Positions 43,790 to 54,327 of a DNA stretch of 64,000 nucleotides are shown here, piece by piece. Source of the DNA: Verrucomicrobiota bacterium (lineage in GTDB: Bacteria; Verrucomicrobiota; Verrucomicrobiia; Limisphaerales; AAA164-E04). The stretch is from positions 1,664,001 through 1,728,000 of the forward strand of contig CP170459.1 in assembly GCA_047947115.1 (NCBI GenBank), in the 5' to 3' direction. The notes under the pieces are model-generated. The model was not told the DNA's origin, did no database searches, and was given only the letters and a program-made list of their open reading frames with translations. Made by a program: the position numbers and the translations under genes. Positions within the stretch are counted from its first letter, which is position 1. Each line of letters starts with the position of its first letter.

Positions 43790-44140
43790 ATGCATTCCGA
43801 CAGGCCTCTGAATCTGGTGTTCTTTCGAACAGAAGCAGGGACAGAACCTGTTCGTGAGTGGTTGTTGAGCCTAAGAAAGCCTGAACGCAAAATTGTAGGA
43901 TCTGATATTTTGGCCGTTTAATATGCATGGCCGGTTGGAAAGCCTCTTGTGGACTCGTTTGGGAATGGTCTGTGGGAAATTCGGTCGAAGTTAAAGGATA
44001 GCATTGCCAGGACTTTGTTCATCATTGCAAACGAGGAAATTGTATTGATGCATGCGGTTATTAAGAAATCACGCACCACACCTAAATCGGACCTTCAATT
44101 GGCTCGGAAGCGACAAAAGGAATATCTGAGTTATCTATGA
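43790..44140 (+). pseudogene. RelE/Gp49-family (HigB-like) toxin with in-frame TAA at 43919-43921
   Basis: FFRTEAGTEPVREWL...DILAV*YAWPVGKPLV...GLWEIRS...KKSRTTP. Confidence 0.85.
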
Positions 44141-44433
44141 ATACGAACCATCCGCATCGAGGGAGTGATTTTCGATCTTTTTTAGAAGAAACGGGAATGT
44201 GTGAGGAGGTCGAAGCGCTAGCCATGAAAAAAGCCATCGCATTGAAACTGCAGTCACTCTTGAAAGATCACTCGCTAACCAAAACGGAGATGGCCAAGCG
44301 CATGAAAACAAGTCGGGCTGCCGTTGATAGATTATTGGATGAGTCCAATCCTTCCATTACTTTGCTAACACTCGAAAAGGGTGCGATGGCTTTGGGACAT
44401 CGATTGAAAATCGAGCTGGTGCCTGCGGTTTAG
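44137..44433 (+). CDS. XRE-family antitoxin (HigA-like)
   Basis: HRGSDF..FL, KTEMAKRMKTSRAAVDRLLD, TLLTL; ATGA overlap. Confidence 0.9.
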   Translation: MNTNHPHRGSDFRSFLEETGMCEEVEALAMKKAIALKLQSLLKDHSLTKTEMAKRMKTSRAAVDRLLDESNPSITLLTLEKGAMALGHRLKIELVPAV

Positions 44434-48419: not shown

Positions 48420-49084
48420 TCAATCTGTGATAATCTGTTTAATCTGCGGTTCAATAAAAAACACCTTGTTCAAAGTTTGGTTCACCGAAATAGATGACAC
48501 TGGAAGTAATCGAAAAACGTGCGACTGAAAAGCGGTATGAGTTACCGCATTTGTCCGTGCATGGATGGTGATGGGGGTGAGGTTGTGATTGTTTGCAAAG
48601 TGGCAGGAGAAACCTTTGGTGACTTGCTGCCAGCATCTCGGTAGAGGCCTTCGACGACGTTGAAAATATAACCGCCCTGCCAGTTCCAGTAGCGCCCCGA
48701 GACATTTGGGTGGTTTGCGGGATGAATCCATGGATTCGATTTGTTCCTTTCCTCGCTCAAGCCGACTTTGAAATGAATCGAAGTGTATGCTCCGTCGGGA
48801 ATGTTGGGCAGCATGAGAGAGATTTCTCTTTTTCCGACATCAAACCAAGCCACTGAATCCGGAAAGGATTGAAGATGCCTTTCACTTGTCTGGAGACTGA
48901 AATCGCTGAGAAACAGGCTCAATCGTGAAATGGAATAGATCTGCCCTGCGTCGTTGGAGTATCGCAACGAATCCAGCGCCAAGGCGCGGTCCTCGTACAC
49001 TGTGTGAAGCGTCAATTTCAGCTGTCCCGCGCTTGCGCTCCAGCAGACCAATACTGCCACGATGATGAAGCTGTATTTGTTCAT
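48420..49084 (-). pseudogene. MbnP-family (copper-binding) protein, frameshifted/truncated
   Basis: Signal peptide, ISRLSLFLSDF, YTSIHFKVG, YWNWQGGYIF; frame changes near 48610 (KGFSCHFA continues in another frame). Confidence 0.65.
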
Positions 49085-49225
49085 ATCGAACGTAATATTG
49101 GAAGGATGCTTGTCGAATGCAATCAGCAAGGGGTGAACCGGAACCGGGGAGGGGTGAATGAGAGCATCGATGGGGTGAATTAAAATATGGTTGACATGGT
49201 CAAGTTATAAAGTCAAGTTGGTCAT

Positions 49226-51360: not shown

Positions 51361-51434
51361 CAGCCTGAAGGGCTGGCTGTGTATGAAGGCAATTGCAACT
51401 TGCTCAGCGGCACACGTTCGTCCATCATCCGCTC

Positions 51435-51550
51435 ATGCTCAGAACCACCATTGCCCATTACAAAATCACCGGCAAGCTCGGGCAAGGCGGCATGGGAGAA
51501 GTGTGTCGGCCGACGAACGGCAAAATGGACCACTTGGCGGCGATCAAAGT
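51435..51550 (+). pseudogene. N-terminal fragment of a Hanks-type Ser/Thr kinase
   Basis: TIAHYKITGKLGQGGMGEV Gly-rich loop and AIKV; rest of domain absent. Confidence 0.75.
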
Positions 51551-51721
51551 AGTGGCTACGGTGGCTGTAAAAGGCAGGAGCGCCCCTCTCAAAATGGAAG
51601 TGCTGATAGGGGAATTCCTTTCACAGAACAAGAATAGGCGGGTCCTACATTTTTTTCAATTAAGGGAAAAAGTGCTTCGAAGTTGTGCCTTTTCATTTGA
51701 GTTCCAAAAAGAAGCTTTTTG

Positions 51722-52372
51722 ATGATGCCAAAACGAAAATTGACAATAATGGTGTCTTCGACGGTTTATGGTATCGAAGAGTTGCTTGAACGTGTTTATG
51801 CGCTACTTACATCTTTCGGATACGAGGTTTGGATGTCGCATAAAGGCACAGTCCCGGTAATTTCGCCCATGACCGCTTTTGAGAACTGCCTCCGTGCAGT
51901 GGAAAAATGTGATCTGTTTCTTGGAATTATCACTCCTTCTTACGGGAGCGGTGAAGATCCACGTGATTCAACGGGTATGTCTATCACTCATCATGAAATC
52001 CGGAAGGCTATTGAGCTGGATAAGCCTCGCTGGCTATTGGCTCATGATCACGTTGTATTTGCCCGTACTTTACTCAAAAATCTTGGGTTTGGAGGTAAAA
52101 GCGGAAGAAAAAAACTGAAACTCAACAAGAATCAAGTTTTTACTGATCTGCGCATTTTGGATCTGTATGAAGATGCCACGATTGATCATGAAGAGCCTGC
52201 GTCCATTCCTTTGGCAGATCGGCGAGGCAATTGGGTCCAGAAATATCATTCCGATAACGATGGAGCCGTTTTTGTCATTGCGCAGTTTTTTCGTTACCAG
52301 GAAGTGGAGGAATTTATTCGAGAGCATTTCCAGAACGGCAACCCTCCTACATTAAACGGGGGTAGCAAATGA
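51722..52372 (+). CDS. DUF4062-domain protein (TIR/NDT-like fold)
   Basis: IMVSST, NCLRAVEKCDLFLGII..SYGS, SITHHEIRKA. Confidence 0.85.
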   Translation: MMPKRKLTIMVSSTVYGIEELLERVYALLTSFGYEVWMSHKGTVPVISPMTAFENCLRAVEKCDLFLGIITPSYGSGEDPRDSTGMSITHHEIRKAIELDKPRWLLAHDHVVFARTLLKNLGFGGKSGRKKLKLNKNQVFTDLRILDLYEDATIDHEEPASIPLADRRGNWVQKYHSDNDGAVFVIAQFFRYQEVEEFIREHFQNGNPPTLNGGSK

Positions 52373-53811
52373 CTCAAAAACAAATCAGGGAACTGTTATT
52401 TCTCGGCGAAGGCCAACGTATAGAGTTCAAATCTTCCCCTCGAAACCCGGACGCGCTTGGCAAGACGGTGTGCGGTTTTTTGAACAGCTCCGGTGGCTTT
52501 TTGGTTTGCGGAGTCAGTGACAAGGGTGATTTGAAAGGCGTCGATACCTCTTCTGACGCCATCGGCCGACTTGAACATATTCTCAACGAGAAAATATCTC
52601 CGAAATCTTTGATCGCTGTCCAAGTGGAGCAAGTGGGGAAGTTTCCGGTAATCGTCATCGAAGTGCCGGCGGGAAATGATGTTCCTTATGCTTTTAAGGA
52701 TGTCATTTACATACGGTCCGGTGACCGGACCCAAAAAGCGGATGCGGAGACTATTCGCGATATAGTCCTGCGCCGCCAGATAGAGCCGGAACGGTGGGAA
52801 CGTCGTTTCTCCTTTGCCGATCTAGATGATGATGTAGATGAGGTTGAGGTGCTCGCAGCGGTATCCGACGCCGAAAAGGTGCGGCGGGCTTTTTTCCGTG
52901 ATGGAACCCAGTTATTGATGGTTCTCGAGGATTTTTCGGTCGCCCGTTACGGCCGTTTGACCAATGGTGGTGATGTTCTTTTTGCCAAGAATTCGGCGAT
53001 CCGTCTTCCGCAAATTCGCATCCGCGCCATGTGCTACAGTTCGGATAAAACAAGCGCTGAATTCAGAGATATGAAATCGTTTGAGGGTCCAGTCTGTCGC
53101 ATTTTTGAGGAAGCCTATTCCTTCATTGTTCGTAATACGCCTACGATTTCGCGATTCATCCCGGGCAGTCCCAAACGCCAAGATGCCTCTATATACCCGG
53201 AGGAAGCGGTCAGAGAAGCTCTGGTTAACGCGCTAGCACACCGTGATTACAGCGTCGCATCTGGTGGAATTGGCATCCACATATATCCTCGTCGGCTTGA
53301 GATTTGGAACTCTGGCGCCTTGCCTGCGGGTGTTACGGTGCCCAGCCTGCAGGCTGGGCAGATCTCCGTTCTGCGAAATCCTGATATTGCCCATGTGCTT
53401 TATTTGCGGGGACTCATGGAGAAGGCCGGTCGTGGCAGCGTGCTCATGGTTCGTAAATGCTTGGAAAACAAGATGCCTCCCCCGGTATGGAAATCAGATT
53501 CTCAGCTGGGAGTAACTGTAACATTCTTTACCCCGGAAGTCACCCCGGAAGTCACCCCGGAAGTCACCCCGGAAGTCACCCCGGAAGTTTTTAGGTTATT
53601 GCGGTGCATTCAGGGGGAAATGACTCGGCAGGCGTTGCAAGCGGAGATGAATCTCAAGGATGCAGAGCATTTCCGAAAGTCATTTCTATTGCCAGCGTTA
53701 GAATCGGGAGTTGTAGAAATGACAATCCCCCAAAAACCAAGAAGCAGCAAACAACGTTATCGACTTACTGCTAACGGCAAGCTGCTGACAAAGCGGCCAA
53801 AAGAAGAATGA
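52369..53811 (+). CDS. Schlafen/AlbA_2 + RecG-C-like (HATPase_c_4) + C-terminal HTH protein
   Basis: GEGQRIEFKS, CGFLNSSGG..VCGVSD; YPEEAVREALVNALAHRDY, RNPDIA, EKAGRG; PRSSKQRYRLT. Confidence 0.9.
   Translation: MTQKQIRELLFLGEGQRIEFKSSPRNPDALGKTVCGFLNSSGGFLVCGVSDKGDLKGVDTSSDAIGRLEHILNEKISPKSLIAVQVEQVGKFPVIVIEVPAGNDVPYAFKDVIYIRSGDRTQKADAETIRDIVLRRQIEPERWERRFSFADLDDDVDEVEVLAAVSDAEKVRRAFFRDGTQLLMVLEDFSVARYGRLTNGGDVLFAKNSAIRLPQIRIRAMCYSSDKTSAEFRDMKSFEGPVCRIFEEAYSFIVRNTPTISRFIPGSPKRQDASIYPEEAVREALVNALAHRDYSVASGGIGIHIYPRRLEIWNSGALPAGVTVPSLQAGQISVLRNPDIAHVLYLRGLMEKAGRGSVLMVRKCLENKMPPPVWKSDSQLGVTVTFFTPEVTPEVTPEVTPEVTPEVFRLLRCIQGEMTRQALQAEMNLKDAEHFRKSFLLPALESGVVEMTIPQKPRSSKQRYRLTANGKLLTKRPKEE
53530..53589 (+). 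repeat. 5 x 12-bp coding tandem repeat (TPEV)5
   Basis: ACCCCGGAAGTC x4 + ACCCCGGAAGTT. Confidence 0.95.
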
Positions 53812-54116
53812 GAGCGCCATTCAATGGCCGCAGTTTGACGGTGAGTCTCCTGTTGCTAGTGGCAGGGGTGGGTGTCTGGATTCCATGGATAAAATATGGA
53901 TACTCACCTACTATGATTCACTTTGTTGGCATGCTGACCACTGGCTGCATCTATTTTGCTTTTTGGACTGTTGGTTTAGTAAGTCTGATTCGTGATTCTG
54001 ATCGTGGATATGTGGGCTGGAAGTTGCAGATTGCAAGCGTTGTTTACCTGTTAGCATTCATCGTTCCGGCTGGCATGATCATCATCATAGTGAGGGCAAT
54101 GTTGATGGGCATTTGA
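53808..54116 (+). CDS. Small ~3-TM membrane protein
   Basis: Three hydrophobic segments; ATGA overlap with upstream gene. Confidence 0.7.
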   Translation: MRAPFNGRSLTVSLLLLVAGVGVWIPWIKYGYSPTMIHFVGMLTTGCIYFAFWTVGLVSLIRDSDRGYVGWKLQIASVVYLLAFIVPAGMIIIIVRAMLMGI

Positions 54117-54280
54117 CCGTATTTGAGGTTCAAAAATTTGGCATTTATTTGGTTTCCTTGCCTGGAACTTCACTGGATTGCCCGGTATTGCAGATTCCAG
54201 AAGCATGGCTAATCCGTCACCTTAAACGCATCTAACAACCTGGTAAAAAGTGGGATAAATAGGCGAAAAACGGGAGGATT

Positions 54281-54327
54281 TGGTGGAGCCATGGTGAGTC
54301 GAACCCCAGACCTTCTCATTACGAATG
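54281..54327 (-). pseudogene. Degenerate 3' half of a tRNA (Ala-type acceptor); probable att relic
   Basis: Minus strand CATTCGTAATGAGAAGGTCTGGGGTTCGACTCACCATGGCTCCACCA; no D-arm or 5' acceptor strand. Confidence 0.75.

Follow-up and report, generated by a model that had tools for sequence, protein, structure and literature searches.

Proteins with a DUF4062 domain have recently been described as NADases acting in abortive infection, the reported products of the bacterial enzymes being ADP-ribose and nicotinamide (10.64898/2026.05.01.722283; 10.64898/2026.09.04.749371). In Swarozyc (10.64898/2026.05.01.722283; PDB 10wc) and Evangelion (10.64898/2026.06.25.731849) the DUF4062 core belongs to a single gene with a fused auxiliary (AUX) sensor, and in Vesta (10.64898/2026.09.04.749371) the first of two operon genes encodes VstA, a small DUF4062/NIR protein that has a catalytic Glu, and the second the alkaline phosphatase VstB. 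Schlafen domains joined to a GHKL ATPase are reported to make up about 59% of prokaryotic Schlafen proteins (60,692/103,533), and in the SLFN-pAgo system RzAgo the GHKL domain of such a 'Schlatpase' binds ATP via E314/N318 and drives the tetramers that license tRNA cleavage (10.64898/2026.05.29.728809). Here we describe a locus where both modules stand side by side, in a 64,000-nucleotide stretch of the genome of a Verrucomicrobiota bacterium (GenBank GCA_047947115.1, contig CP170459.1, positions 1,664,001 to 1,728,000 of the forward strand; the window). Its gene 1 encodes a stand-alone DUF4062 protein, its gene 2 a Schlafen-GHKL ATPase ending in a winged helix-turn-helix (wHTH) domain, and its gene 3 a small hydrophobic protein (Table 1). 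A reading of the letters alone (the sequence-only reading) had proposed them as a three-gene anti-phage operon, in which a nucleotide-signal or NAD-consuming enzyme is coupled to an RNase effector.

The nearest described systems differ from this locus in partner, in fusion or in core. In layout the gene pair resembles Vesta, with a small DUF4062/NIR protein bearing a catalytic Glu encoded first, but the partner of VstA is a phosphatase that is dispensable for defence, whereas the partner here is a Schlafen-GHKL ATPase-wHTH protein. With Swarozyc and Evangelion it shares the DUF4062 core, E92 of gene 1 aligning with E97 of the Swarozyc protein KpSwz; unlike those single genes, gene 1 has no such AUX domain, with no match beyond residue 107 to KpSwz, the sequence used for this comparison, and has a fixed partner gene. 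Nor does Pfam place it in a fusion with a STAND NTPase or HEAT repeats, as in Avs/NLR-type NIR proteins and Vulcan. Gene 2 has the SLFN and GHKL ATPase domains, the E(x)4(D/E)xK motif and the N-box Glu/Asn of SLFN-pAgo, present in the window protein as E14/E19/K21 and E283/N287, and exchange with restriction-modification (RM) systems and NACHT proteins is also reported in that work (10.64898/2026.05.29.728809). It lacks the Argonaute core, however: the PADLOC pAgo profile was matched over positions 59-396 of its 1121, and no Pfam PIWI domain was found. It ends in a wHTH, is partnered by a predicted NADase and has a nuclease site that has often decayed among its relatives. Its domain architecture is that of the Schlafen-HisKinase(-HTH) proteins, the commonest prokaryotic Schlafen class (PMC13056530; DIP2311, 3LMM); single genes of that class gave no defence when tested, and the text and supplements searched mention no DUF4062 partner.

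No named system fits the combination, as the sequence-only reading had supposed. The literature search, whose coverage excluded figures, bioRxiv supplements and subscription journals, found no published description of a DUF4062-Schlafen pair; Fig. 2 of the NIR preprint, Fig. S1E/G of the Swarozyc preprint and the identities of Eva02 and Eva04 could include this architecture. The pair is a real and widespread candidate system of two genes, as yet without a name, that combines two defence modules characterised in recent work.

Conservation and neighbourhood of the pair

The three plus-strand reading frames are indeed chained by 4-nt ATGA overlaps, and that between genes 1 and 2, through which the two would be translationally coupled, is kept in 96 of 105 unique pairs. 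Gene 1 (counted from the ATG at 51722, with a TTG at 51719 and a second ATG at 51725 as alternative starts) matches DUF4062 at E 4e-17 over residues 9-96, with a score for PF13271 of 62.6 bits against a curated cut-off of 24.7, and weakly TIR_2. Gene 2 matches SLFN_AlbA_2 (E 1e-21, residues 14-124), HATPase_c_4 (E 1e-14, 301-386) and the Fic-like_C wHTH (E 5e-23, 406-467), which bears out the proposed fusion of a Schlafen domain to a GHKL-like domain and a helix-turn-helix (HTH); the order PF04326 then PF13749 is that of the Schlatpase supradomain, and gene 2 is the sole PF04326 match in the 6.08-Mb genome. No full match by defence-finding tools had been expected, and PADLOC gave none for gene 1 and partial domain matches only for gene 2 (pAgo, Aga_SIR2-PNTD); none of the three genes matched NCBIfam.

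Relatives of gene 1 are numerous (2003 among 2375 candidates of similar length). The 106 loci analysed, some of them duplicates, comprise 22 from GTDB, the best 80 of 353 from metagenomes, one from IMG/VR and three of five plasmid matches. A gene 2 homologue directly follows gene 1 in 103 of them; of the three unpaired loci, two end at a contig end within 120 bp and one carries a DUF4062 gene of another type, with 26% identity. The gene pair is thus strictly conserved across genomes, a check on which the sequence-only reading had staked its proposal. Gene 3 is a different matter: its three hydrophobic segments agree with the three-transmembrane protein proposed, but it has no Pfam family, a single outside relative (at 76%) and no counterpart in any of the 106 loci, so that of the three-gene operon the pair stands and gene 3 as a component does not. 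Named hosts of the pair are Spirochaetota, Chlorobiota, Bacteroidota, Bacillota, Thermodesulfobacteriota, Verrucomicrobiota and Omnitrophota, and it also occurs on Hymenobacter and Acinetobacter plasmids. IMG/VR holds one locus with gene 1, and 50,697 phage records hold no match to it.

The reciprocal search, with gene 2 in 1103 genomes from three phylum samples, returned 62 loci, 21 of them at 190 bits or more. With the window and the two seed genomes excluded, gene 1 lies upstream in 15 of the 18 loci at this level; two of the exceptions have insertion sequence (IS) DNA upstream, and the third (L121) falls outside the paired clade. Among the 41 weaker loci, six of which had less than 650 bp upstream, gene 1 is upstream in none. 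In a tree of 129 Schlatpases, computed by a quick search with the motif columns removed and showing long branches, a single branch (SH-aLRT 99) takes in the 87 paired proteins together with both IS orphans, and gene 2 proteins of as little as about 32-35% identity are still paired. The two genes form a fixed unit that has spread horizontally and is found across many bacterial phyla. The mirror-tree correlation between them (rho 0.90) was rejected as evidence of binding, being expected from co-inheritance alone. We note a divergent pair on an 8.9-kb Acinetobacter plasmid (L105:2477-4351), whose gene 2 carries the annotation 'Fic family protein' and shows no SLFN domain detectable by Pfam, and a single Omnitrophota locus (L018:5302-6906) where gene 2 ends inside an overlapping NAD synthetase gene, probably by chance.

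PADLOC, run on the 128 genes neighbouring the pair in the GTDB set of 22 loci (three of which contributed none, and without a background control), gave credible defence matches in about 10 loci, in keeping with the proposed setting among defence genes; the types are type I RM, AbiL/PARIS-like, AbiE, dGTPase, retron III-A, DarTG, PD-Lambda-1 and PDC candidates, and mad3 matches in L003, L012 and L013 were discounted because they look like housekeeping ATPases. The sole recurrent neighbours are hsd genes, with hsdM in 26 of 90 unique loci, directly upstream in 22, and hsdS downstream in 13. In windows of equal size, RM genes accompany 36 of 107 paired and 4 of 40 unpaired loci, a contrast biased by queries drawn from paired loci. 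A place among hsd genes, plausibly backing up restriction, recalls the guards of the PrrC/RloC type in type I RM operons; those have unrelated folds (an ABC ATPase and a HEPN nuclease), and RM linkage is optional for the pair. Two hsdM copies often lie upstream of the pair (L028, L032, L035, L044, L048, L050, L054, L058, L081, L085, L089 and L100).

Active sites and variant architectures

The AF2 model of gene 1 (pLDDT 91) is a single domain over the whole protein with a five-stranded alpha/beta fold, for which Foldseek returns nucleoside deoxyribosyltransferases (NDT), MilB, DNPH1 and TIR domains; ESM Atlas gave only leads below 0.9 for residues 100-205. The family profile matches KpSwz (10wc) at E 2e-5, restricted to residues 4-107, and places E92, the conserved Glu of the SITHHE motif noticed in the sequence-only reading, on the site mutated as E97A (numbering derived from the printed alignment plus the residue numbers in the paper). 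E92 is invariant, in 57 of 57 sequences of one set and in all 103 unique-pair rows with a residue at this position. DUF4062 proteins were shown to act as NADases in preprints of 2026, and since their catalytic Glu corresponds to E92, gene 1 very probably consumes NAD, one of the two activities originally suggested for it.

For gene 2 the best Foldseek match is 3LMM (DIP2311, E 4e-20), followed by SLFN13/11/12, and the sequence matches in the PDB are SLFN12/5/11. The GHKL residues E283 and N287 are invariant (95 of 95 unique-pair rows). Patches whose conservation is specific to the clade lie at W143-E144 of gene 2 and at R167-Q173 of gene 1. The Schlafen nuclease motif, present in the window as E14-x4-E19-F-K21 just as first noticed, is more variable: K21 is kept in 71 of 105 unique pairs, and among full-length proteins in 61 of 87 paired versus 40 of 40 unpaired; L014 and L017 are examples of natural pairs without the Lys. 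The corresponding Fisher p of 2e-5 is overstated, because kin are not independent, and clustering at 70% identity leaves 15 of 26 paired versus 31 of 31 unpaired. On the tree, at least eight K21 changes are counted, every one inside the paired clade. One unpaired Schlatpase subgroup (5 rows) has E19Q, so site decay as such is not unique to the paired clade, whereas loss of the Lys is. The whole triad is intact in 60 of the 87 paired proteins, and the window copy retains all three sites, i.e., the NIR Glu, the GHKL Glu/Asn and the Schlafen triad.

Natural variants rearrange the same parts. P0220 fuses DUF4062, SLFN and HATPase_c_4 within 640 amino acids, and its Schlafen motif reads R-x4-E-x-L, E14 and K21 being gone; its cluster has 6 members, of which 3 are full length and 2 are partial NCBI proteins that span the junction. 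P0278-P0280 resemble fusions but have internal deletions and 1-2 members, and were left out of the count. In two Chlorobium-like loci a NACHT domain takes the place of the wHTH, K21 is lost and the upstream NIR gene is kept; the Schlatpase-NACHT NTPase frames at L156:1325-4003 and L157:1-3896 are open over 1249 and 938 amino acids, and the upstream NIR of L157 is tandemly doubled (407 amino acids), as in the similar double-NIR proteins P0129, P0130, P0161, P0197, P0274 and P0275. A single protein at L011:4866-6386 has the order DUF4062-GHKL(HATPase_c_4)-HTH, with the conserved Glu kept and no Schlafen domain; it sits in the same type I RM operon as a pair and is possibly a one-gene cousin of it. 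None of nine longer gene 1 homologues is annotated with STAND or HEAT domains, a weak negative.

Proposed wiring and its alternatives

The predicted NADase and ATPase sites are fixed and the nuclease site is expendable, from which we infer that the ATPase controls the NADase. The reading we favour, and hold to be evenly poised between right and wrong, casts the pair as an abortive-infection defence whose DUF4062 NADase would be switched on by the Schlafen-GHKL ATPase; a defence role of some kind is likely. NAD+ depletion under ATPase control would most likely be the core output, with tRNA cleavage optional. In such a mechanism the two proteins would form a complex, and infection would be sensed by the C-terminal module of gene 2, which is the wHTH here and NACHT in the two Chlorobium-like loci; given the RM context, a possible trigger would be an anti-restriction protein or damaged DNA. 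ATP-dependent oligomerisation would then assemble gene 1 into its active form, which would drain NAD+. Pairs that keep E14/E19/K21, the window's among them, may in addition cleave tRNA, an output that they could do without.

More tentatively, and at somewhat under an even chance, a Schlafen-GHKL clade may have given up the part of a tRNA nuclease and been rewired into a scaffold, driven by ATP, for the activation in trans of a separate NADase; its C-terminal sensor (wHTH or NACHT) would be exchangeable, and it would often stand guard over type I restriction operons. On that reading the pair would be a new abortive-infection system with a Schlafen protein as regulator, not effector. The fixed NADase partner offers a direct read-out, NAD+ loss, of what a Schlafen-GHKL ATPase senses, and suggests why tests of single Schlafen-GHKL genes can fail. 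With natural variants that have or lack the nuclease site, a fusion and a NACHT swap at hand, a few point mutants would suffice to test the wiring.

Several points weigh against the favoured reading. Genomic data do not reveal the direction of control, activation or inhibition. The DUF4062 systems published so far come with a sensor of their own and act as single genes (10.64898/2026.05.01.722283; 10.64898/2026.06.25.731849), and tight linkage need not mean control, because the partner gene in Vesta is dispensable (10.64898/2026.09.04.749371). In E. coli, some DUF4062 genes (Eva02) gave no protection (10.64898/2026.06.25.731849), and neither did Schlafen-HisKinase genes tested alone (PMC13056530). 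About 70% of pairs keep the Schlafen triad, the window's included, which is therefore still under some selection. Around two thirds of the loci, again including the window, have no nearby RM gene; the RM contrast is biased, and the tree is a quick one with long branches.

One ATPase switch could also release two effects, each of which contributes: the depletion of NAD+ and the cleavage of tRNA by the Schlafen domain, whose nuclease would disappear only where redundant. The triad intact in most paired proteins and in the window speaks for such a two-effector defence, as does the RzAgo Schlatpase, which cleaves tRNA when tetrameric (10.64898/2026.05.29.728809); we nevertheless think it unlikely, given that K21 changes cluster inside the clade with none outside and that the fusion and the NACHT variants do without this residue. 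The wiring proposed in the sequence-only reading, in which the Schlafen RNase of gene 2 would be activated, in the manner of Thoeris, by a nucleotide signal made by gene 1, draws on the TIR/NDT-like fold of gene 1, the intact triad in the window and the speculation of the NIR authors that some NIR domains may make signals (10.64898/2026.09.04.749371). It is unsupported, because within the paired clade the catalytic site of the Schlafen domain has decayed again and again and the NIR and ATPase sites never have: the Schlafen Lys of the supposed effector is lost in 26 of 87 pairs, and the supposed signal enzyme is invariant. Moreover, Pfam recognises no ligand-binding domain in gene 2, and the reported bacterial DUF4062 products are ADP-ribose and nicotinamide. 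We regard this wiring as distinctly improbable.

Control in the opposite sense, with gene 2 as an antitoxin or guard that holds the NADase off while its wHTH may repress the operon, would free the toxin upon loss of gene 2 or of a monitored RM complex, and could serve maintenance of an element as much as phage defence. It would account for the lack of gene 1 orphans (0 among 103 close-family loci with downstream sequence) next to two gene 2 orphans with IS sequence upstream, for the presumed translational coupling, and for the occurrence of the pair on plasmids and beside toxin-antitoxin genes. A plain antitoxin needs no invariant ATPase site, however, and both the fusion and the NIR-GHKL protein put the NIR domain in the effector slot of an oligomerising ATPase; we consider this arrangement quite unlikely. 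Scarcely credible is a three-gene system with the membrane protein, or a pair co-inherited without any functional link. The ATGA overlap of gene 3 suggests the former and the rho of 0.90 fits the latter, but gene 3 is in none of the 106 loci, pairing persists down to the identities given above, and the fusion exists.

The cassette in its genomic slot

Three of the neighbours named in the sequence-only reading were found as described: the cassette is preceded by a Phd/PIN toxin-antitoxin pair, an IS110 remnant and, by Pfam, the 5' end of a Ser/Thr kinase gene. In the relative G007 the kinase, which begins in the same way, is intact (939 amino acids), and immediately after it comes the 194-bp element found at the border of the cassette here; metatranscriptome contigs connect 51503 to 54131. 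These two observations show that the cassette has replaced the body of the kinase.

Table 1. The cassette, its motifs and its borders (window coordinates, except for the copies elsewhere in the host genome, G000).
Feature	Position	Strand	Basis
Ser/Thr kinase gene, 5' remnant	51393..51554	+	Pkinase E 0.009
Gene 1, stand-alone DUF4062/NIR, TIR-like, 216 aa, predicted NADase effector	51722..52372	+	Pfam, AF2, Foldseek, alignment
Gene 1 catalytic Glu92 codon	51995-51997	+	sequence
ATGA stop/start overlap, genes 1/2	52369..52372	+	sequence
Gene 2, Schlafen(AlbA_2)-GHKL ATPase-VTPE linker-wHTH ('Schlatpase'), 480 aa	52369..53811	+	Pfam, Foldseek, PDB sequence matches
Schlafen nuclease motif E14-x4-E19-x-K21, intact in window	52408..52431	+	sequence
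GHKL N-box E283/N287	53215..53229	+	spacing as in RzAgo E314/N318
12-nt tandem repeat x4.9, codes (VTPE)n linker	53530..53588	+	sequence
Gene 3, 102 aa, three hydrophobic segments, co-oriented passenger	53808..54116	+	hydropathy; no conserved linkage
3' half of tRNA-Ala(CGC) + ~150 bp flank, repeated element bounding variable slot	54132..54326	-	sequence comparison
tRNA-Ala(CGC) element copies in G000	C1:4190415-4190615; C1:4216812-4217005

The bounding element is a real tRNA fragment, as first proposed, of tRNA-Ala(CGC) and not, as also considered, of tRNA-Thr; it is 88% identical to the genuine tRNA-Ala(CGC) locus and to one further copy, both elsewhere in the same genome (G000). A reading of it as the cassette's own attachment (att) site was rejected, because the same element follows the intact kinase in G007. 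This element of about 200 bp recurs in the genus (for instance at L150:7024-7216) and is also present in G007 and G001. The kinase slot appears hypervariable. Among the matches listed from 30 host relatives, many with incomplete genomes, none covers genes 1-3 at the DNA level. The GC content of gene 1 is 44% against 51% for the genome, and horizontal acquisition of the cassette is the probable explanation.

A promoter and terminator scan stayed at chance level (4 found versus 3.4 expected). Of the sampled words, 6-11% are present in RNA runs, and the metatranscriptome contigs hold short, near-exact pieces of gene 2 at a depth of 2-4, which are evidence of neither transcription nor a single transcript. 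The copy number of the (VTPE)n linker ranges from about 1 to more than 12 among relatives, and the repeat is possibly a slippage site. Beside the Phd/PIN pair, an MbnP-domain gene (48542-49129, minus strand) appears truncated, with 195 amino acids here versus about 605 in the relative G001 (L149:5342-7156). Elsewhere in the window, at 43949-44433, lies a second small toxin-antitoxin-like pair, composed of Gp49/DUF891 and HTH genes.

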